Shown: positions 2,857 to 61,100 of the stretch, piece by piece | Layout of the letters: the number at the start of each line of letters is the position of its first letter | Position numbering within the stretch: the first letter of the stretch is position 1 | Assembly (NCBI GenBank): GCA_022837635.1 | Contig: JALHFY010000002.1 | Coordinates: 5,055-69,054 of the forward strand | Length of the DNA stretch: 64,000 nt | From: Candidatus Shapirobacteria bacterium | Lineage (GTDB): Bacteria > Patescibacteriota > Microgenomatia > UBA12405 | Direction of reading: 5' to 3' | Program-made: the position numbers and the translations under genes | Notes under the pieces: generated by a model | Told to the model about the DNA's origin: nothing | Seen by the model: the letters and a program-made list of their open reading frames with translations, nothing else | Databases searched by the model: none

Positions 2857-2888
2857 ACAGTAGAAACACAATTTATATTTTTACGTTG

Positions 2889-3265
2889 CGGAGATGCCCG
2901 GGAATGAACCGGGGTCCGAAATTGAAATTAAAAAACGTCGACAAGCTTAAGTAAAAAACATCGATTGGTTGGGACATTACTCCCTCTTAGGTCTGACAAT
3001 AACCGAGAAATCATCAGACAGCAGTTTAAAATGGTTGACACTGTTTAAGCCCTTTTAGACAAGAGCAAAAACAATGGTTGATTGCTTAAGCTAGTGCGTA
3101 AGCAGGAGCCGCAGGAGCATTGATACCAGTAAAGGCATCGGCTACTTTGGTCAAATCAACGCCAAAAGTTTTTTTGGCATAATGTTTTGATTCTCTTTTA
3201 CGACGATGAATCAAAGTCGGCTTGCAGTTTTTTAAGGTGCAATCCCGTCAAGGCGTTACATCTCC
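2889..3265 (-). ncRNA. ssrA: tmRNA (ssrA)
   Basis: The minus-strand 5' end GGAGAUGUAACGCCUUGACGGGAUUGCACC resembles canonical GGGGCUG...UUCGACGGGAUUUGCG. The 3' end ...GGACCCCGGUUCAUUCCCGGGCAUCUCC has a T-arm with a UUCAUUC loop and a 7-bp acceptor pairing with the 5' end. An internal in-frame tag ORF reads ...ADAFTGINAPAAPAYALA then a TAA stop (stop at 3086-3088 on the minus strand). The gene is adjacent to smpB. Confidence 0.75.
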
Positions 3266-3408: not shown

Positions 3409-4053
3409 ATGAGTTGGTTAATAGATTGGTTATATCCAAAAAAATGTTTAGGCTGTGGTCGGGGTGATGATTATTTGTGCAATTTCTGTGAAAGAAAAAT
3501 AAAAATAGCCGGATTGAGGCAAAAATCCGGATTTGAAGGTCTAATTTCAATTTATAAATATGACGGAGTGATGAAAAAAATAATTGAGGAGATTAAGTAT
3601 CAACATTTGTCAGCGGCAATTGAGAGTTTGGGACAAAAAATGGGACAAAGCTTAAAAATTAATTATCCAGAGACTGTTAAACATTGGCAAAAAGAGCATT
3701 TTGTTCTGGTACCGATACCATTATATAAAGGCAGAGAAAATTGGCGGGGTTTTAATCAAGCCAGAGAAATAGCGGTGGTGGTGGCACAAAAATTAGGTTT
3801 GGAATATGCTGAAATTTTAGAGAGAAAGAAAAAGGGGGTAAATTTAGCCAAAATTCATAATCACCAACAAAGAATGGCGGAGATTAAGGGGGTGTTTAGA
3901 GTAAAAAATGAAATTGAGAGAAGAGAGAAAATAATCTTAGTGGATGATGTAATTACCAGCGGGGCGACTATGACTGAGGCGTTGAAGACCTGGAAAAAGG
4001 TGTCTCCTCAGGGGCGGGGTTGGGGTTTGAGTCTGGCCGGAGTCCGGAGATGA
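3409..4053 (+). CDS. comF: ComF family phosphoribosyltransferase-domain protein
   Basis: N-terminal Cys pairs (CLGCG...CNFCE) and a C-terminal PRTase motif ILVDDVITSGATM; the true stop is probably earlier than the ORF end. Confidence 0.7.
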   Translation: MSWLIDWLYPKKCLGCGRGDDYLCNFCERKIKIAGLRQKSGFEGLISIYKYDGVMKKIIEEIKYQHLSAAIESLGQKMGQSLKINYPETVKHWQKEHFVLVPIPLYKGRENWRGFNQAREIAVVVAQKLGLEYAEILERKKKGVNLAKIHNHQQRMAEIKGVFRVKNEIERREKIILVDDVITSGATMTEALKTWKKVSPQGRGWGLSLAGVRR

Positions 4054-4702
4054 GACGTTCATTTTTAATCATGTCGGCGTCTTTGAGGATGTCTTTGACT
4101 TCGCTGGAACCCAGAGCATTTTCCAAAGGAGTAAGAGAACTGAGATAAAAATTTTCGACAAAAAGACCATGTGAAGTGAGAGAATCGCGAAGCTCCTGTT
4201 TGACCTCGTCCTCAATCAGGCTGCGGTTGGTAGAGAGAGCTTTAGCTAGAGTATGATTGGTTAAAACCTTGCGGATACGACTACGGGTAACTGGGCGAAC
4301 GACTTTAGAAACAAAATTTTCGCCAATGTTTTGCCAAATTTCAGGTAGTCTTTCAGTGTCAAGTTTGATTAAAACAGTGGCTTCGATAGAGACAAATTGA
4401 TTGTCAGCGGTAACAGCATGAATAACTTCATCCCCCATAATTTCGTTGTTGTCTTTGAGAGAGATATCTTTGGAAATAGTGTATTCAATTAGTTGAGCAT
4501 TAAAAAGTTTGACTCGCTGAATCAAAGGAATCTTGAAATGCATGCCGGGGTACCAAACATTTTTGAGAACACCACGGAAAACATCATAAATACAGCCGAC
4601 GTGACCGGGAGGAATGGTGACAATAAAGCCGCCAACGATTTCGTCAACGAAGAGAGAAACTAGTAAATTATCGATAGATGCCATATGGATTGAATTATAC
4701 AC
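3968..4702 (-). CDS. SPFH/band-7 (prohibitin/HflK-C-like) domain protein
   Basis: N-terminal TM region followed by a band-7 core (...KIPLIQRVKLFNAQLIEYT...VSIEATVLIKLD...); the start may be the internal MASIDN. Confidence 0.65.
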   Translation of the reverse strand: MYNSIHMASIDNLLVSLFVDEIVGGFIVTIPPGHVGCIYDVFRGVLKNVWYPGMHFKIPLIQRVKLFNAQLIEYTISKDISLKDNNEIMGDEVIHAVTADNQFVSIEATVLIKLDTERLPEIWQNIGENFVSKVVRPVTRSRIRKVLTNHTLAKALSTNRSLIEDEVKQELRDSLTSHGLFVENFYLSSLTPLENALGSSEVKDILKDADMIKNERLISGLRPDSNPNPAPEETPFSRSSTPQS

Positions 4703-5387
4703 TAAAGGCAGTAGCTAAAGCCATTAGTTCTTTTTGAGGATCAGCAGCCTTGACTACAGAGGAGGCAACTAAAATCCCTTGAGCGCCTAATTTAAGGCCA
4801 GTGCTAACATCAGAGGCTTGGTGAATACCGGCACCGATAAGTAGTTTTTTATGACCTAAAATTTGGGCAAAGTGTTGGACTTGTTGGGGTTTGCCGGTGG
4901 ACACTGAAATTTGACTGTTGCCGATATATTCTTTGGGTTCATAGGCAAAAAAAGTGGGATTTAAGTTTTTGGCCCAGGAATTGAGTTGACCTAAAGTTTG
5001 GAGACATAAAACCGAATCAAAGTCTTTGGGCCAGTGCTTGAGCAATGATTTAATTGTTCCTGGTTTGAGACGGTGCTCGGAATGGTTTAGGAGAGAGCCT
5101 TTGATGCCCAAGGATTGGGCATGAAGAGGGGAAATAAAACCGCTGTGGGCACCTTCTAAAAAGGGATCAACATGTTGGAGATAGACTTCTATACCTAATT
5201 TTTGATGGATGTTAACGGCATCCAGAGCAGAGACTACGGGATAAATTTTGACGCCAGTTTGTTGAGACACTGATTTAGCCATGGCGGCAAAATCAAGGGC
5301 TTTATAGGCGAAAGTTTGGGGATAAAGTTTAAGGTTTAAGAGTATCACCGCTGAGTTTATATTTACTAATAACTTGAGAAATGCCAT
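4695..5387 (-). CDS. tpiA: triosephosphate isomerase, archaeal type
   Basis: NLKLY (archaeal NFKTY catalytic Lys region), LLNHSEHR, AYEP, LIGAGI...GILVASSVVKAADP. The protein is collinear with the ~225-aa archaeal TIMs rather than bacterial TpiA. Confidence 0.75.
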   Translation of the reverse strand: MAFLKLLVNINSAVILLNLKLYPQTFAYKALDFAAMAKSVSQQTGVKIYPVVSALDAVNIHQKLGIEVYLQHVDPFLEGAHSGFISPLHAQSLGIKGSLLNHSEHRLKPGTIKSLLKHWPKDFDSVLCLQTLGQLNSWAKNLNPTFFAYEPKEYIGNSQISVSTGKPQQVQHFAQILGHKKLLIGAGIHQASDVSTGLKLGAQGILVASSVVKAADPQKELMALATAFSV

Positions 5388-30905: not shown

Positions 30906-30979
30906 TGGAGTCGCGGGCGGGAGTCGAACCCGCCTGAACGGTTTTGCAGACCGCTGTCTAACCGCTTGACTACCGCGAC
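30906..30979 (-). tRNA. tRNA-Cys (GCA)
   Basis: Minus-strand cloverleaf GTCGCGG...CCGCGAC with discriminator T and CCA; anticodon loop CTGCAAA; T-loop GGGTTCGACTCCC. Confidence 0.85.
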
Positions 30980-39432: not shown

Positions 39433-39999
39433 TTAAATTTTGTATTCGAAATATTGATCGTAGGGGATGGTCCAGGAAACTGTGTCTTCGATGCTGGCAT
39501 TTTCCATGATTTTTCTAAAGAGGCGGATGGAATTGCCGTGAGCGGAAATGGCGATACCCAGATTTTGACCGGTATAATTTTTCTTTAGATCCTCAATAAA
39601 GGATTTAACTCTGATTTCGACATCAGCAAAAGATTCGCCATTGTTGGCTTTGTCGGCCCAACCACGGTGCCATTTGTCAAACTGTTCTTGACCATATTTT
39701 TCGATAGTTTCGGCGTGAGTGTGACCGGCCAAATCACCATAAGAACGTTCAATTATGCGGTCGTCGGTAATAATGTTTTGACATTCGGGATGAAATTTAA
39801 GAACTTCATTGAGAGTATCAACAGCTCGGGAAAGTCGACTGGTGTAAGCGACATCAATTTTTTTATCTTTAAGCATTTGCCCCAAAGCCTTGGCCTGTTC
39901 AACACCCAAGGGAGTTAATTTAGAATCAAGCCAGCCAGTAAAAGTTTTACTGAGATTAAATTCAGATTGTCCGTGACGGAAGAGATAAATGTTTGACAT
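39433..39999 (-). CDS. gpm: histidine-phosphatase superfamily protein (phosphoglycerate mutase-like)
   Basis: LFRHGQSEFN (RHG motif), ...SRLSRAVDT..., ...ISAHGNSIR. Confidence 0.7.
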   Translation of the reverse strand: MSNIYLFRHGQSEFNLSKTFTGWLDSKLTPLGVEQAKALGQMLKDKKIDVAYTSRLSRAVDTLNEVLKFHPECQNIITDDRIIERSYGDLAGHTHAETIEKYGQEQFDKWHRGWADKANNGESFADVEIRVKSFIEDLKKNYTGQNLGIAISAHGNSIRLFRKIMENASIEDTVSWTIPYDQYFEYKI

Positions 40000-40029
40000 A
40001 GAGTAATTATATGCTAGAATTTCTTAAAT

Positions 40030-40240
40030 TTGGAACGCGTTGATGGGGACATAATACACCCCCGGAGTATATCGACAAAATCGATAAGGGTTCTCCCTAA
40101 ACAGAGATAGAGTATCACTGCGAAAGCAAGTACTCGATAATAAGGTAGATAATTTTTTATCTACGAAACAAGGTGGTACCGTGAGAAGCCCTCACCCTTG
40201 TAAGACCTTTTTGGTCTTATAAGGGCGAGGGCTTTTTTTG
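40030..40240 (+). promoter_or_regulatory. T-box riboswitch leader with terminator
   Basis: Conserved T-box sequence AAGGUGGUACCGUG at 40169-40182 (consensus AGGGUGGNACCGCG). An immediately following ~20-bp terminator hairpin GCCCTCACCCTTGTAAGACC/GGTCTTATAAGGGCGAGGGC plus T7 at 40188-40239 has a 5' arm overlapping the T-box (antiterminator/terminator alternative). Upstream stem-I-like elements are an AGAGA box and AGUA...GAAA distal loop. Confidence 0.6.
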
Positions 40241-40293
40241 TACCGACGGTGACCGAACAGTTAGGTGACGCTCTGTAAAAGCGTTTTAAGCAA

Positions 40294-41388
40294 GTGCAAC
40301 TCTTGCCCGTCGGACTGATGAAAAATAATATAAACAAATCTCTATTGAAAAAATTGGTAGAGATAAAATCGCTAAGCCAGGAGACGGTCCAGTGTCTAAA
40401 AGCACTGAAACTGATTGAGCTGGAAATAAATAAAGCAAATATTCCGGTATTTATCGATGTAAATGAGGGTGTGCCTTTTTTGATAGCCGGAAATTTACAA
40501 CAGGCTGGGGTTCTATTTTTAAGTCATATTGATGTGGTACCAGCGACCAATGAAGGTTTTAAATTTAAAGAAGTCGGCAATAAATTTTTTGGCAGAGGGG
40601 TTTTAGATATGAAAGGACCGCTGGTGGCGACCTTGGATGCTTTTATAAAATTATGGAAAGCAGGTCATAAAAACATTATTTTTGCGGTTACTAGTGATGA
40701 AGAAGTGGGTGGTTTTAAGGGAGCGGCATTTTTAGCAAAAAATATATTGGGGAAGATTAAAATGGCCCTAATTCCTGATGGTAGTAGTGAAGATGTGGTT
40801 CTAATTCAAAAAGCACCCTTTCATATAAAAATTACCGCTAGAGGAAAATCAGCTCATGCTTCCAGACCTTGGGAAGGCATCAATGCTGCGGAAAATTTAG
40901 GAAAATGTTGTGGCGAAATACTGGCAAAAATTAATGGGAAAAAGCCGGAAGAAACGACAGCAACACTATGTCAATTTCATAGTGGTCAGACAACTAATAT
41001 GCTACCCAACAAAGCTGAAGCGGTGATGGATATCAGAATTAAACAAGAAACTGAAGTGAAAGCGATGGTGAAAAATTTAAATCAGGTAACAAAAAAAATT
41101 GGATGTAAATGGGAAAAGATTGATGAAGCCTTATTTTTTGAGATAAAAAAGGAGCAACCGTTGATTAAAAAATGGCAACAGGCCTTTAGAGCAGTCCATC
41201 AAAAAGAAGCGGGTTTTGTCATTGAAAACGGAGCCTCGGATGCCAGATTTTTATGGCAAGAATTAAAAATACCGATAATTGTCACTTCGGCTAAGGGAGC
41301 TGGAGCACACAGTCATCATGAGTGGGTGGAAATAAATTCTTTGAGTCAATTATCAGAAACAATTGTCAAATTTATTATTAGTTTATAA
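40294..41388 (+). CDS. M20-family metallopeptidase (ArgE/DapE/CPG2-like)
   Basis: SHIDVVPA, GRGVLDMKG, ...SDEEVGG... metal-binding motifs. The start may instead be the ATG at 40318. Confidence 0.7.
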   Translation: MQLLPVGLMKNNINKSLLKKLVEIKSLSQETVQCLKALKLIELEINKANIPVFIDVNEGVPFLIAGNLQQAGVLFLSHIDVVPATNEGFKFKEVGNKFFGRGVLDMKGPLVATLDAFIKLWKAGHKNIIFAVTSDEEVGGFKGAAFLAKNILGKIKMALIPDGSSEDVVLIQKAPFHIKITARGKSAHASRPWEGINAAENLGKCCGEILAKINGKKPEETTATLCQFHSGQTTNMLPNKAEAVMDIRIKQETEVKAMVKNLNQVTKKIGCKWEKIDEALFFEIKKEQPLIKKWQQAFRAVHQKEAGFVIENGASDARFLWQELKIPIIVTSAKGAGAHSHHEWVEINSLSQLSETIVKFIISL

Positions 41389-41396
41389 TTCAAATT

Positions 41397-42488
41397 ATGA
41401 CCATAAAAGAAAAAATGCACTTAATTACCCGTAACTGCGAAGAGGTGTTGACGGAAAAAGATTTAGAAAGTCTGTTGAAATCAGGAAAAAAGATTCAACA
41501 TTATATCGGTTTTGAAATTTCGGGACTGGTACATTTGGGAACGGGTTTGGTGTCGATGGGTAAGATTGCCGACTTTTTAAGAGCTGGGGTGAAATGTCGG
41601 GTATTTTTGGCTGATTTTCATACTTTTTTGAATAATAAATTGGGTGGAAAATGGGATGATATCCGCTGGGCTTCAGAGCATTATTTCAAGGAAGCTTTGA
41701 TCGCCTCCCTCAAATGTCATGGAGTTGATCAGGATGAAGTGGAGTTTATCAGTGGCAAGGAATTTTATGAGAAAAACCCGATGCAGTGGCAAAATTTTAT
41801 GGAGATTGGTAAACATATCACCCTGTCACGAAATAAAAGAAGTATCTCAATTATGGGAAAAGAACTGGGTGATGATGTGGATATGGCGACACTTTTCTAT
41901 CCCCCACTGCAAGTGGCTGACATAGCCACCTTGGACATCAATTTAATACATGCAGGTATGGATCAAAGAAAGGCTCATGTGATTGCCAGAGAGGTAATCA
42001 AAAAAATTCCGGGAAATTACCAGACACCGGTGGCGGTTCATCACAATTTAATTGCCGGACTAACCGGACCGGAACCCGGTCAAAACGACAATGAATCGTT
42101 AAAGATGAGTAAGTCGAAACCGGGAAGTGCCATTTTTGTTCATGACAGTCCTGAAGAGATAAAAGATAAAATTAAAAAGGCTTATGGACCACCGAAGGTG
42201 GTAGAGTTTAATCCATTGTTAAGTTGGGTAAAAACATTGGTGTTTTGGGGAGAAGATGAGGGTGAGTTTGTAATTGAAAGACCGGAAAAATTTGGAGGTA
42301 ACAAAACTTACACCAGATACTCTCAACTGGAAAAAGACTATGCTTCGGGAGAATTATTTCCACTTGATCTAAAAAATGCTCTGGCGGAGTGGTTGATTAA
42401 AAAATTGGAGCCCGCTCGGAAACATTTTGAAACCCCGGAAATGCAAAAAAATTTAGAAAAAATGAAAGAATTGTTGGGTAAAAAATGA
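41397..42488 (+). CDS. tyrS: tyrosyl-tRNA synthetase, archaeal/eukaryotic type
   Basis: Collinear with Methanocaldococcus-type TyrRS: IGFEISGLVHLGTGL (HIGH region), KMSKS, DSPEEIKDKIKKAYGP, IERPEKFGG...LEKDY...FPLDLKNALAEWLIKKLEP. Confidence 0.7.
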   Translation: MTIKEKMHLITRNCEEVLTEKDLESLLKSGKKIQHYIGFEISGLVHLGTGLVSMGKIADFLRAGVKCRVFLADFHTFLNNKLGGKWDDIRWASEHYFKEALIASLKCHGVDQDEVEFISGKEFYEKNPMQWQNFMEIGKHITLSRNKRSISIMGKELGDDVDMATLFYPPLQVADIATLDINLIHAGMDQRKAHVIAREVIKKIPGNYQTPVAVHHNLIAGLTGPEPGQNDNESLKMSKSKPGSAIFVHDSPEEIKDKIKKAYGPPKVVEFNPLLSWVKTLVFWGEDEGEFVIERPEKFGGNKTYTRYSQLEKDYASGELFPLDLKNALAEWLIKKLEPARKHFETPEMQKNLEKMKELLGKK

Positions 42489-49999: not shown

Positions 50000-50260
50000 A
50001 TGAATTATTACCTTTATATATTAAAAAGTTGTGATGGTAAACATTGGTATACAGGCTCGACAAGCAATATAATGTTGAGACTAAAACACCATAATAATGG
50101 TCATACATTTTCCACTAAACCGTATAGACCATGGAAATTAGTTTACTACGAAAAATTTAGTAGCCGGAAAGAAGCTTTTCGGAGAGAAATGTTTTTAAAG
50201 TCTCCGTCCGGTTATCAAGATTATTTGAAAATTAAAAAATCTATTGGAGGGGTCGGATAG
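50000..50260 (+). CDS. small GIY-YIG nuclease-family protein
   Basis: YYLYILKSCDGKHWYTGST...RLKHHN...; GIY-YIG core in 86 aa. The 3' end overlaps the first 15 nt of tRNA-Ser. Confidence 0.7.
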   Translation: MNYYLYILKSCDGKHWYTGSTSNIMLRLKHHNNGHTFSTKPYRPWKLVYYEKFSSRKEAFRREMFLKSPSGYQDYLKIKKSIGGVG

Positions 50261-50331
50261 TGGTTCATTCCACAGACCTGGAAAGTCTGCGGCCTTCATC
50301 GGCCTCGCGGGTTCGAATCCCGCCCCCTCCG
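50246..50331 (+). tRNA. tRNA-Ser (GGA), type II
   Basis: Acceptor GGAGGGG/CCCCTCC, discriminator G, D-arm GGA-TAGTGGTTCAT-TCC, anticodon loop CTGGAAA, long variable arm GGCCTTCATCGGCC, T-arm GCGGGTTCGAATCCCGC; CCA not encoded. Confidence 0.8.
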
Positions 50332-52216: not shown

Positions 52217-52729
52217 TTATTTCTTAGCCTTGAGGAGAGCTACAAGACGGGCATGGGCTTTTTTGAGAAGATTACGTTCAAAATCATAGGCTAGTTTTTT
52301 GAGAGCTTCGTCATAGTGGTACCATTCACGACCAATAACAGTCTCGGAATCGTAATATTTTAGATTGCTGTCTTCACGATATTCCATCAGAAAAAAAGTG
52401 ACTTTTTTGATAATTTTTTTGTTGGTAACTTCGTCCCAGATAATATAATCTCTCGAACCGATTTTATCGATAATGGTGGCTTTGATGCGACCTTCTTCTT
52501 CCACTTCGCGAATGGCGGCTTGTTTTAGGACTTCACCGGGATTGAGATGACCTTTGGGAAACTTATAAATAGTATGGCGGGTTTTTTGACCGTGGCGCAA
52601 AGTACGTTTTTTGGAGAGAGTTTTGATGACAAACCAGAGAATTTCCCCATTGTTGACACGATAAACGATGCCTCCGGCGGAGCGTTCATCATAATTTAAA
52701 TTAGCCTGTTTTTGGGGAGTTTTGGTCAT
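52217..52729 (-). CDS. NUDIX hydrolase
   Basis: Nudix box [23 protein letters not shown]. Confidence 0.75.
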
Positions 52730-52751: not shown

Positions 52752-52825
52752 TATACCCGAGAGGATTTGAACCTCCAACCTTCAGCTTCGGAGGCCGACG
52801 CTCTATCCAATTGAGCTACGGGTAT
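52752..52825 (-). tRNA. tRNA-Arg (CCG)
   Basis: Minus-strand cloverleaf with acceptor ATACCCG/CGGGTAT, U8A9, D-arm GCTC-AATTGGATA-GAGC, anticodon loop CTCCGAA, T-arm GGAGGTTCAAATCCTCT, discriminator A. Confidence 0.7.
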
Positions 52826-55150: not shown

Positions 55151-55840
55151 ATGGAAGAACTACATGAATATCAATTTTCAATTTTAAGAACTTTATTATT
55201 TAAACCAGGAGCACGATTTTCCGAATTAAATAAAGTCGGTATAAGTAGTGATCATTTTAATTTTCATGTTAAACAATTGAGTAATTGGGGTTTGGTTAAA
55301 AAGGAAAATCAAAGATACTTTTTGACTAATAAAGGTAAGGAATTGGCGGGGAGGATGGATACTGATCAACTGACGATAGAGAAACAAGCCAAGTTGGGGG
55401 TGGCATTACATGCTGTTCGTAAGAATAAGGGAGTGACGGAATATTTAATTCATCATCGATTAAAAGAACCACTGTATGGTTGGTACGGTTCACATTCAGG
55501 CAAAATTCGTCGGGGAGAAAATCCGGAAGAAACCGCCAAACGAGAGTTTTTTGAGGAAACAGGTTTAACAGGTAAATTTAGTCTGAAAGCGATTAAGCAA
55601 CAACGAGAATTTGATGCTACCGGGAAATTGTTAGAGGATAAATATTTTTGGGTCTATCGAGTGGATGATGTCCAAGGTACGTTGAAAGAAAAGGTAGAGG
55701 AGGGGGAAAATTTGTGGATGACAAAAGAAGAAATTAAAAAACTAAAAAATGTGTTTGCCAGTTTTGAGGAAATGTATGAAGTTTTGGAGAGTCAAGAAGT
55801 GTTGATTTTAAGAGGTGACAGGACGCTGGAAAAATATTAA
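55151..55840 (+). CDS. winged-HTH + NUDIX hydrolase fusion protein (paralog A)
   Basis: N-terminal approx. 70-aa wHTH (ILRTLLFKPGARFSELNKV...HVKQLSNWGLV); C-terminal Nudix box GKIRRGENPEETAKREFFEETGL. Confidence 0.65.
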   Translation: MEELHEYQFSILRTLLFKPGARFSELNKVGISSDHFNFHVKQLSNWGLVKKENQRYFLTNKGKELAGRMDTDQLTIEKQAKLGVALHAVRKNKGVTEYLIHHRLKEPLYGWYGSHSGKIRRGENPEETAKREFFEETGLTGKFSLKAIKQQREFDATGKLLEDKYFWVYRVDDVQGTLKEKVEEGENLWMTKEEIKKLKNVFASFEEMYEVLESQEVLILRGDRTLEKY

Positions 55841-59712: not shown

Positions 59713-60252
59713 ATGATACAAGGTGGTGTTGGTGGAGCTAACACAAAAACAGGCTTATATTATGAAGGTAAGGTGGATCTGCTGACATTTATAGCTTCTA
59801 AAAAAGGTTATTCTATAAAGGATAATATTGTTTATTTTCACGGGAAAGAAGTTGCTCAAACATTTAAGAAACATGCTCTCTATACATACTTGGCTAAACG
59901 AGGAATAAATTATAAAGATTACATATCAAAAAAATTATTACCAGATGATTCGATTTTTGTAATAGTCAAAAATACTTTATTTATCATAGAAGTGAAGTTT
60001 CAAAGAGTAGCAGGTTCTACGGATGAAAAACTACAAACTTGTGATTTTAAAATCAAACAGTACAGAAAACTATTATCAAGATTAAATATAGAAGTAAAGT
60101 TTATTTATATTCTCAACAGAGAATGGTTTGATAAACCGGTGTATAAAGATGTACTTGATTACATTGTTTCGATAGATGGTTGTCGGTATTATTTTGACTA
60201 TCTGCCATTACATGAACTTGGTTTACCAGTACCTGATGGTGAAAATGACTAA
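59713..60252 (+). CDS. putative PD-(D/E)xK restriction endonuclease (small)
   Basis: LPDD...IIEVKFQ resembles the PD-(D/E)xK motif; positioned between two MTase genes; start 5 nt after the MTase stop. Confidence 0.4.
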   Translation: MIQGGVGGANTKTGLYYEGKVDLLTFIASKKGYSIKDNIVYFHGKEVAQTFKKHALYTYLAKRGINYKDYISKKLLPDDSIFVIVKNTLFIIEVKFQRVAGSTDEKLQTCDFKIKQYRKLLSRLNIEVKFIYILNREWFDKPVYKDVLDYIVSIDGCRYYFDYLPLHELGLPVPDGEND

Positions 60253-61100
60253 TAGCTGGTAATAATTAGTTCTTTGATTTTTCCTCTTTTCTCTCCTTTG
60301 CTATTAATTGAACGAGCTGAGTATACTTCATGAATATTAAACGGCTGATACAGCTTTCTAATGAAATCTGTATTGGAATTACTTAACATAACAAAACATC
60401 CTTTTTGGTGTAGTTGTTTAAAAGTTTCTGATAATTTTATTTGTTCCTTGAAAGTAAAATTATTTTTTGAGTAATTGGTAAAGTTGGCGGTGGTGTTTAA
60501 TGGATAATAAGGAGGATCGAAATAAATAAAATCACTTTTTTTACAAGTTTTTATTGATTCCTCAAAAGAAGTACTAGTAATATGAGTATCGTGTAAGGTG
60601 TGGGATACGGCTTGAATATTACCTACGTCGCAAATGGTTGGGTTGGGTTGATCGCCAAAGGGAATATTATATTCACCTTTGGAATTTTCACGATACATTC
60701 CGTTAAAACAAGTTTTGTTAAGGAAAATAAGATAGGCGCAGTAAGTTAAATTGTCTAATGAATTTTGATTATATTCTTGGCGAATTTGATAAAAATATTT
60801 TTTTTGATTATCTAAATTAAGTTTTTTGTATTCCTTTTCTATATTTTTTAGAAGTTTGATCAAGGAATCAGGATCCTGCTTGATAATTTCATAACAGTTC
60901 ATCAGTTTTTTATTAATATCATTGATATAAGAATGATTTGTGATGAGTTTTTTATTAGACAATTCAAAGAATAAGGCTCCCCCTCCCATAAATGGTTCGT
61001 AATAATTATTGATTTTGTTAGGGATCAGTTTCGAAATCTCCGGGATGAGTTTACTTTTTCCTCCAACCCATTTAACGAATGGTTTTGCTGGTTTTGTCAT
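60249..61100 (-). CDS. Dam-family (alpha-class, D12) N6-adenine DNA methyltransferase, probably GATC-specific
   Basis: VKWVGGKSKLIPEI, YYEPFMGGGALFF (motif I), DPPYYPL (motif IV); collinear with E. coli Dam/DpnM. Confidence 0.85.
   Translation of the reverse strand: MTKPAKPFVKWVGGKSKLIPEISKLIPNKINNYYEPFMGGGALFFELSNKKLITNHSYINDINKKLMNCYEIIKQDPDSLIKLLKNIEKEYKKLNLDNQKKYFYQIRQEYNQNSLDNLTYCAYLIFLNKTCFNGMYRENSKGEYNIPFGDQPNPTICDVGNIQAVSHTLHDTHITSTSFEESIKTCKKSDFIYFDPPYYPLNTTANFTNYSKNNFTFKEQIKLSETFKQLHQKGCFVMLSNSNTDFIRKLYQPFNIHEVYSARSINSKGEKRGKIKELIITSY

Follow-up and report, generated by a model that had tools for sequence, protein, structure and literature searches.

A probable terminator-type tyrosine T-box with an ultrashort stem I ahead of a tRNA-Tyr gene in a Shapirobacteria operon

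Introduction

T-box riboswitches are a model system for RNA–RNA sensing. Those that act on transcription generally need a long stem I and contact with the tRNA elbow (PMC7583486; PMC11297988), and the distal platform of stem I has been described as essential for them (PMC7583486). The prevailing view is that transcriptional T-boxes require this elbow platform for fast tRNA capture and that only the slower translational ones manage without it. Ultrashort stem I elements are known from translational T-boxes, mostly actinobacterial, in which stem II and the IIA/B pseudoknot compensate (PMC7583486; PMC11297988). Here, we describe a T-box leader with an ultrashort stem I and an intrinsic terminator in a 64,000-nt stretch of DNA from a Candidatus Shapirobacteria bacterium (GenBank assembly GCA_022837635.1, contig JALHFY010000002.1, positions 5,055–69,054, forward strand; hereafter the window). 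It lies ahead of genes for a tRNA-Tyr(GUA), an M20-family metallohydrolase and a tyrosyl-tRNA synthetase (TyrRS; gene tyrS). We consider it quite likely that the leader is a terminator-type tyrosine T-box that also controls the gene for its own ligand, a reading built on comparative sequence analysis.

The tRNA–enzyme pairing at this locus has been described before. In bacteria belonging to the candidate phyla radiation (CPR), the base pair C1-G72 together with A73 forms the identity set for archaeal-type TyrRS, with or without a long variable arm (V-arm), and the same pairing occurs in Microgenomates including Shapirobacteria; one Roizmanbacteria genome has both a V-arm and a V-arm-less C1-G72 tRNATyr (Mukai et al., 2017; PMC5370408). 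That paper mentions no T-box, no tRNA-M20-tyrS operon and no atypical D and T loops. It also reports tRNATrp(A73)-ORF1-TrpRS-A arrays in Microgenomates, where a tRNA is co-transcribed with protein genes as proposed here, and no riboswitch sensing the same tRNA stands ahead of them. In the searchable literature, which is incomplete, we found nothing linking T-boxes to CPR or Patescibacteria, nothing relevant on a T-box ahead of a tRNA gene, and no published precedent for a terminator-type ultrashort stem I or for a T-box controlling the gene of its own ligand. Co-transcription of tRNAs with a protein gene is familiar from the thrU-tyrU-glyT-thrT-tufB operon of Escherichia coli, whose tRNAs are freed by processing and follow no riboswitch that senses one of them. 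In the tRNA punctuation of mitochondria, a tRNA adjoins the next start codon and its excision gives a leaderless or nearly leaderless mRNA; the case described here concerns one junction on a bacterial chromosome, with a proposed excision step, and has variable spacing among relatives.

Set against canonical transcriptional T-boxes (Rfam RF00230; for example, Bacillus subtilis tyrS), the leader shares the T-box sequence, an antiterminator whose 7-nt bulge reads UGGN and which competes with an intrinsic terminator, the kink-turn, a UAC specifier with a purine just after it, stem II, stem IIA/B, a purine-flanked stem III and a cognate aminoacyl-tRNA synthetase downstream. It differs in that stem I stops at an apical-loop specifier, so that there is no AG bulge/distal-loop elbow platform, and in having a plain 6-bp stem II, an extra hairpin before stem III, a sub-cutoff Rfam score, a tRNA gene as the first regulated gene and a CPR bacterium as host. 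The short stem I, the apical-loop specifier, the absent elbow platform and a decoding module completed by stem II and IIA/B are shared with the translational ileS T-boxes of Actinobacteria such as Mycobacterium and Nocardia (Sherwood et al., 2015, via PMC7583486 and PMC11297988). Those elements sequester a Shine–Dalgarno (SD) sequence, bind tRNA-Ile and carry a long stem II with an S-turn, whereas the present leader has a U-run terminator, no SD, tRNA-Tyr and a minimal stem II.

Identity and architecture of the leader

A permissive Rfam search matched RF00230 at 40031–40202 with 54.2 bits, against a gathering score of 93; the E-value was 3.4e-11 when 451 nt were searched and 4.8e-9 for the entire window. 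The cmsearch check that a first-pass annotation, made from the sequence alone, had proposed for its T-box call thus gave a significant E-value and a score under the curated threshold. The match covers the model from end to end, with 9 nt standing in for 74 positions of stem I, and it is this replacement that keeps the score below the gathering value. At the curated threshold, Rfam reports no T-box in the window, a limit of the tool, and the RF00230 search located no further T-box in the 64 kb. The T-box sequence GGUGGUACCG occupies 40172–40181; the longer segment AAGGUGGUACCGUG (40170–40183) corresponds to the conserved AGGGUGGNACCGCG-like T-box sequence, the core of which is invariant in 13/13 aligned leaders.

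Relatives were gathered by a metagenome scan with M20-orthologue alignment and by look-ups of contigs encoding M20 orthologues. Our own covariance model R1, made from 13 leaders, scores 230 bits at the window leader and retrieves 17 related leaders from CPR metagenomes; all 17 have the truncated architecture, although the M20 proteins linked to them are merely 30–70% identical. When an explicit structure model was applied to the 13-leader alignment, 90.6% of cells were paired, compared with 27–46% when partners were slid by 1–3 columns; 21 pairs changed on both sides, and none of 500 shuffles reached the observed covariation score. Of the usual marks of a T-box, the stem I distal platform and a score above the Rfam gathering threshold are missing. 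Despite the latter, we take the covariation as decisive, and it indicates that the leader is a genuine T-box. These data point to a new structural variant, terminator-type with an ultrashort stem I and conserved across CPR lineages.

Coordinates of the elements are collected in Table 1. In stem I, G40037-C40038 pairs with G40067-U40068 to form a base helix that changes from C-G to U-A among relatives. The kink-turn above it has a GUU bulge followed by G.A and A.G pairs, and the next helix, of 4 bp (40045–40048 with 40060–40063), varies from GGGG/CCCC through GAGG/CCUC to GAGA/UCUC and is closed by an 11-nt apical loop (40049–40059, ACAUAAUACAC). Every family member has the 4 bp and the 11-nt loop, and the distal AG bulge and distal loop, the elbow-stacking interdigitated T-loop platform, are absent from stem I. 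The apical loop of stem II, CAAAA (40076–40080), is invariant. Pseudoknot IIB covaries in the 13 leaders, with alignment columns 78/93 reading GC in five, UA in five and AU in three, and columns 79/92 reading CG in 11 and UA in two. The extra hairpin contains a conserved internal loop (UCAC/AG); pairing in its helix reaches 100% of cells, compensatory changes are seen there, and alone it folds at -9.3 kcal/mol (z = -3.2). Stem III has conserved flanks, AAUAAG 5' of it and GAAAC 3' of it, and in most relatives an inserted hairpin lengthens it; these flanks agree with the RRRxG-stem III-AA motif, the purine flanks having been described for the T-box discriminator domain (PMC7583486).

Table 1. 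Features of the leader, the downstream operon and other loci referred to in the text. Positions are those of the window unless a contig handle (L) is given.
Feature	Position	Strand	Evidence or description
Promoter-like site	39993-40020	+	TTGACA, 16-nt spacer, TG-n-TAGAAT (extended -10)
T-box leader RNA, whole element	40031-40241	+	RF00230 and covariance model R1
Stem I	40037-40068	+	Rfam alignment, covariation
Specifier codon UAC (Tyr)	40055-40057	+	Apical loop of 4-bp stem I; purine A40058 next
Stem II	40070-40086	+	6-bp hairpin; 4/6 pairs change on both sides
Stem IIA	40088-40090 with 40095-40097	+	Invariant GGG/CCC
Pseudoknot IIB	Loop 40091-40094 with 40105-40108	+	Covariation
Extra hairpin between IIA/B and stem III	40110-40135	+	Insert in Rfam alignment, not in Rfam model
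Stem III	40145-40164	+	5/5 outer pairs change on both sides
T-box sequence and antiterminator	40169-40200	+	Two helices 97-100% paired; -11.1 kcal/mol alone
Intrinsic terminator	40185-40239	+	~22-bp hairpin, then U7
tRNA-Tyr(GUA) gene, 72 nt	40243-40314	+	ARAGORN, Rfam tRNA 49.4 bits
M20-family metallohydrolase (ArgE/DapE-like deacylase or peptidase)	40318-41388	+	PF01546 (E 6e-26), PF07687 (E 1e-14)
Archaeal/eukaryal-type TyrRS	41397-42488	+	NF006330, 389.6 bits vs cutoff 220
Examples of open reading frames with a -10 box	3968-4684(-), 39433-39999(-), 52217-52729(-), 55151-55840(+), 60249-61100(-)
Gene X loci	L093:2446-3516, L095:2383-3516, L097:2591-3499, L022:1670-2740, also L015, L017-L021

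A related leader in two contigs (L071:2227-2410, and likewise L072) keeps the decoding module, with the UAC loop, stem II, IIA/B and the extra hairpin. It has no T-box bulge or antiterminator, and two terminator-like hairpins come instead. This leader may be either a decayed T-box or a variant that works without 3'-end sensing.

Specifier and tyrosine specificity

The specifier is best placed at UAC in the stem I apical loop, the position in which short stem I elements carry it (PMC7583486). UAC is invariant in 17/17 leaders, while the following base is A, C or U; it complements the GUA anticodon of the adjacent tRNA, agrees with the tyrS downstream and obeys the third-position C rule of T-box specifiers. 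With UGGU invariant as well, linked tRNAs carrying A73 and tyrS downstream, these observations support a tyrosine-specific leader, as the first-pass annotation had supposed.

Other frames were considered. The default specifier frame of the T-box database TBDB (PMC7778990) gives ACA (Thr) at this leader, since the covariation leaves one more base unpaired ahead of the helix. We reject it because the C in third position, overwhelmingly the base found there in T-boxes, with a following purine and the place of the codon in the apical loop fit UAC, and because tyrS stands in every family operon, with tRNA-Tyr(GUA) in many; moreover, UAC is invariant whereas the next base varies, and a third-position C fits UAC alone. 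Both specifier candidates of the first-pass annotation proved wrong: the UAC of GUACUCG (40131–40133) is part of a covarying helix, on its 3' strand, and reads UAG in L013 and L022, and the AAU/AUA of GAUAAUAAGG belongs to the conserved purine-rich stem III flank.

Antiterminator, terminator and promoter

The antiterminator has a 7-nt bulge, UGGUACC (40174–40180), of which UGGU (40174–40177) complements a tRNA ACCA end. UGGU is invariant in the leaders and every linked tRNA-Tyr carries A73, including the adjacent one, which bears out the earlier prediction of an A73 tRNA from this bulge. The terminator hairpin pairs 23 nt with 23 nt (40185–40207 with 40213–40235) at -39.4 kcal/mol (z = -9.8), well beyond the stability of the antiterminator alone, and runs into seven U (40233–40239). 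It covaries separately, with 90.8% of cells paired, seven pairs changed on both sides and a nearly invariant U-run. Since its 5' arm includes the antiterminator 3' strand (40191–40200), the two structures share these bases and are mutually exclusive. The T-box call and the strong overlapping terminator of the first-pass annotation are thus borne out by the RF00230 match, the covariation and the folding energies, even if a simple terminator scanner did not flag the hairpin, a limit of that tool. Translational control was ruled out by the U-run terminator and the lack of an SD. As a separate observation, GGUAC in the T-box bulge (40175–40179) complements GUACC at the terminator–tRNA junction (40240–40244) and pairs with it in the minimum-free-energy fold; the junction GUACC is found in most, not all, relatives.

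The promoter-like site has 11/12 matches to the sigma-70 consensus with the TG present, a consensus from which CPR promoters may differ, and equivalent boxes are seen in L012, L022 and L093. A scan with the same consensus found no other plus-strand promoter-like site from 40021 to the tRNA at 40243. The leader -35 box covers the first codon of a divergent phosphoglycerate-mutase-like gene (39433–39999, minus strand), whose own -10 box sits in the leader promoter spacer, so the two divergent promoters overlap.

tRNA-Tyr gene and protein genes downstream

The first-pass annotation had placed an M20 peptidase/archaeal-type tyrS operon behind the terminator. Both genes are there, and the first gene after the terminator is an overlooked tRNA-Tyr rather than the peptidase. 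ARAGORN calls tRNA-Tyr(GTA) at 40243–40315 and Rfam tRNA at 40243–40314; in whole-window runs, Rfam with default filters missed it despite ~49 bits. The gene starts 3 nt past the last terminator U, and its A73 ends 3 nt ahead of the M20 ATG. It has the acceptor CCGACGG...CCGUCGG-A with C1-G72 and A73, a 5-nt variable loop without a V-arm and no encoded CCA. The identity features match the synthetase type, C1-G72, A73 and no V-arm going with an archaeal-type TyrRS. Alone, the sequence folds as a cloverleaf with the anticodon loop CUGUAAA, invariant among relatives. In ten sequences, seven of them distinct, 97.3% of cloverleaf cells are paired versus 34–49% in slid controls, and the acceptor, D, anticodon and T stems each show compensatory changes; with ~3 sequence types, these represent few independent events. 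Both the D loop, AACAGUU, and the T loop, UGCAACU, are atypical, with A for the expected G18 and G55 for U55. Among the tertiary positions, U8, A14 and C56 are present; the L011 type, which ARAGORN does not call, has GG and UUC, yet G8 and G14.

The M20 protein falls in an orthologue clade linked to tyrS and reaches no NCBIfam equivalog cutoff; that it releases tyrosine from an acylated or peptide-bound form is a guess. The TyrRS is of archaeal type, as had been proposed: the bacterial model TIGR00234 gives 103.6, under its cutoff of 113.8, and Pfam finds PF00579 only, with no S4 domain.

Proposed mechanism and alternative readings

We propose the following scheme, drawn from the leader anatomy and the established T-box mechanism. 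The sigma-70-type promoter would start a leader of ~215 nt acting as a tyrosine T-box by transcription attenuation. By default, the terminator would form and RNA polymerase would halt in the U-run. When uncharged tRNA-Tyr is present, its GUA anticodon would pair with UAC in the truncated stem I apical loop, presumably assisted by stem II and the IIA/B pseudoknot and perhaps by the extra hairpin, and its free ACCA end would pair with the UGGU bulge, stabilising the weak antiterminator so that polymerase continues. The read-through transcript would carry tRNA-Tyr(GUA), M20 and archaeal-type tyrS in that order. If RNase P and a 3' endonuclease then cut out the tRNA, the leader would be stripped off, leaving an mRNA that begins 0–3 nt before the M20 AUG. 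We infer the tRNA-dependent read-through, the tRNA–mRNA co-transcription and the processing step from these features.

As a secondary hypothesis, tRNA excision may thus yield a near-leaderless mRNA. An SD-like motif precedes 4/51 window open reading frames (ORFs) of at least 150 aa, and many have a TATAAT/TAAAAT-like -10 box ending 6–8 nt before the ATG (examples in Table 1), which suggests that leaderless or SD-independent initiation is the norm in this host. A near-leaderless M20 mRNA would suit such a host because SD sites are hardly used. The A73-to-ATG spacing is 2–3 nt in the window, L011–L014 and L019/L097, though not in L016, L022 and L093–L095. In its strongest form, in which the T-box-gated tRNA-Tyr is the cell's working and possibly only tRNA-Tyr, its excision gives a leaderless mRNA and a terminator-type T-box works without elbow contact, the proposal is tentative, and we rate it somewhat below even.

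Several observations weigh against the proposed scheme. The leader scores below the Rfam gathering value and lacks the distal platform, and no S-turn is evident by eye in stem II, a plain 6-bp hairpin. The codon frame is itself inferred, with one extra unpaired base 3' of UAC-A and a TBDB default of ACA. Tertiary positions that are nearly universal in tRNAs are altered (G55 in the window; G8 and G14 in the L011 type), leaving the translational activity of this tRNA uncertain, and a T-box gating the sole gene for its ligand would have no obvious recovery route from low tRNA. In some lineages the tRNA is dispensable at this position, being a decayed remnant in L015/L021 and absent from L018, L047, L048 and L066. 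The close relative L002 (87% TyrRS identity) is without the whole T-box-tRNA-M20 block.

An unlikely alternative accepts the T-box as real but denies the tRNA-shaped element a part in translation: it would be an RNase P/RNase Z processing signal at which the leader is severed from the mRNA, a mimic binding TyrRS or the T-box, or a specialised non-proteinogenic isoacceptor, with a housekeeping tRNA-Tyr elsewhere. The atypical elbow nucleotides (A at G18, G55; in the L011 type also G8, G14 and no ARAGORN call), an ATG 2–3 nt past A73 in a host that leaves SD nearly unused, the survival of the acceptor stem alone in L015/L021, the Roizmanbacteria genome with both tRNATyr forms and the fully canonical tRNA-Tyr of L005 and L008 would all fit this account. 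Processing, however, needs the acceptor and T arms only, yet the anticodon stem compensates and the anticodon loop is invariant; because the anticodon arm is conserved in this way, the element is probably more than a processing signal. The whole tRNA is also far more conserved than nearby leader loops, the tRNA of the L019 group at this position is entirely canonical, spacers of 60–115 nt separate the tRNA from the next ORF in L016, L022 and L093–L095, and L018 has no tRNA at all.

Two further accounts are far less probable. That the leader is a decaying T-box relic with stem I deleted and no sensing, its hairpin a leaky constitutive terminator or the 5' flank of a tRNA precursor, seems very improbable to us: the sub-threshold score and the missing platform that transcriptional T-boxes reportedly need would agree with it, yet the truncated design is retained in 17 leaders whose M20 partners have diverged widely, UAC and UGGU are invariant, as are the loop of stem II and the flanks of stem III, compensatory changes are seen in all helices, the pseudoknot among them, and the partial decay actually seen in L071/L072 takes the form of discriminator domain loss. 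Least credible of all is an independent promoter for the tRNA and downstream genes, the T-box transcript always terminating and acting only in trans, say as a small RNA that binds tRNA. CPR promoters may deviate from the sigma-70 consensus that was scanned; against this, the gap from U-run to tRNA is 3 nt with no promoter-like site in 40021–40243, conserved covarying T-box helices fill the interval, and in tRNA-less relatives the leader adjoins the first ORF directly.

If the T-box does gate the tRNA gene, a riboswitch would control how much is made both of its own RNA ligand and of the enzyme charging that ligand, coupling positive feedback on the tRNA to negative feedback via the synthetase, a circuit of which we found no earlier description. 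A platform-less terminator-type family would offer a natural test of the elbow-platform idea and a minimal engineering scaffold, and T-box regulation would be extended to CPR/Patescibacteria. The T-box would also have outlasted the swap of a bacterial TyrRS/tRNA identity set for an archaeal one, and the tyrosine regulon of a GNAT-fold protein, M20 hydrolase and TyrRS may show how auxotrophic CPR hosts obtain tyrosine.

Relatives and operon history

The order promoter, T-box, terminator, tRNA-Tyr, (GNAT-fold gene), M20, tyrS occurs in 11 distinct lineages (window/L001, L011, L012, L013, L014, L016, L022, L091, L093, L095 and L019/L097). TyrRS homologues assign the host to Candidatus Shapirobacteria (Patescibacteria/CPR), and a public metagenome-assembled genome contig, from UBA1420, shows 97% identity at TyrRS. 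In L019/L097/L098, a canonical bacterial tRNA-Tyr (G1-C72, long variable arm) occupies the same position and the TyrRS is bacterial-type with S4. Further R1 members, at more distant CPR loci (L066, L047/L052/L053 and L048), lack a tRNA; the leader directly precedes operons whose last genes are M20 and a bacterial-type tyrS. Because the same T-box heads operons with gene X, M20 and a bacterial-type TyrRS in other CPR lineages, the archaeal-type enzyme appears to have replaced a bacterial one within an older T-box operon. The combination of a bacterial T-box with an archaeal-type synthetase, which the first-pass annotation had called unusual, does exist; it has a history, and the T-box is not peculiar to it. 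The most economical history would begin with an old CPR operon in which a tyrosine T-box headed the GNAT-fold gene X, M20 and tyrS. In one subclade, a tRNA-Tyr gene would then have arrived between terminator and first ORF, and later TyrRS and tRNA identity would have been swapped to the archaeal type in the window lineage, the T-box being retained throughout.

Gene X encodes a family of 300–390 aa. Most relatives have it ahead of M20, with the tRNA-Tyr (or the T-box) on its other side, and it is absent from the window. It has no Pfam, NCBIfam or PDB sequence match; its AlphaFold model (predicted local distance difference test, pLDDT, 86) matches GNAT acetyltransferases in Foldseek across about half its length, so that it may be a tandem GNAT, and a role in handling or releasing acylated tyrosine is a guess. 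In three relatives with gene X (L093:2335-2445, L095:2270-2382, L022:1551-1669), a relic mini-ORF, ATG/GTG AAA AAA CAT TAG, which resembles the M20 start, comes after the tRNA together with a partial repeat of the terminator–tRNA junction, TGTTTGTACCGACAC. We read this pattern as the trace of a rearrangement in which gene X was inserted or deleted.

Other relatives show further variation. The remnant in L015:1297-1340, and likewise in L021, lies after the terminator as ACCAAUGG...CCAUUGGA, with the acceptor stem intact and the D and anticodon arms deleted. The M20 of L091:4584-5666 (likewise L092) is the closest metagenomic relative of the window's, at 71.5% identity, and its tRNA belongs, like the window's, to the short C1-G72 type; the TyrRS next to it, 360 aa long, is just 37% identical to that of the window, which suggests another TyrRS replacement inside the same operon. 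In L005 and L008, from Shapirobacteria with 56% TyrRS identity, a canonical V-arm C1-G72 tRNA-Tyr lies upstream of tyrS; a T-box was looked for near it in both and none was found. Direct repeats of ~100 nt or more, containing GC-rich hairpins, flank these tRNA-Tyr genes (L005:4330-4420 and 4795-4930; L008:4395-4530 and 4825-4960). Six archaeal-type TyrRS of Shapirobacteria (P0039, P0043, P0086, P0089, P0114 and P0120) are ~520 aa long and carry a C-terminal PF04073 domain (YbaK/ProX-type aminoacyl-tRNA editing). The window itself holds other RNA genes, namely a transfer-messenger RNA at 2886–3265 (minus strand, 80.9 bits) and genes for tRNA-Cys(GCA), tRNA-Ser(GGA) and tRNA-Arg(CCG), in that order at 30909–30979 (minus), 50246–50331 (plus) and 52752–52825 (minus).

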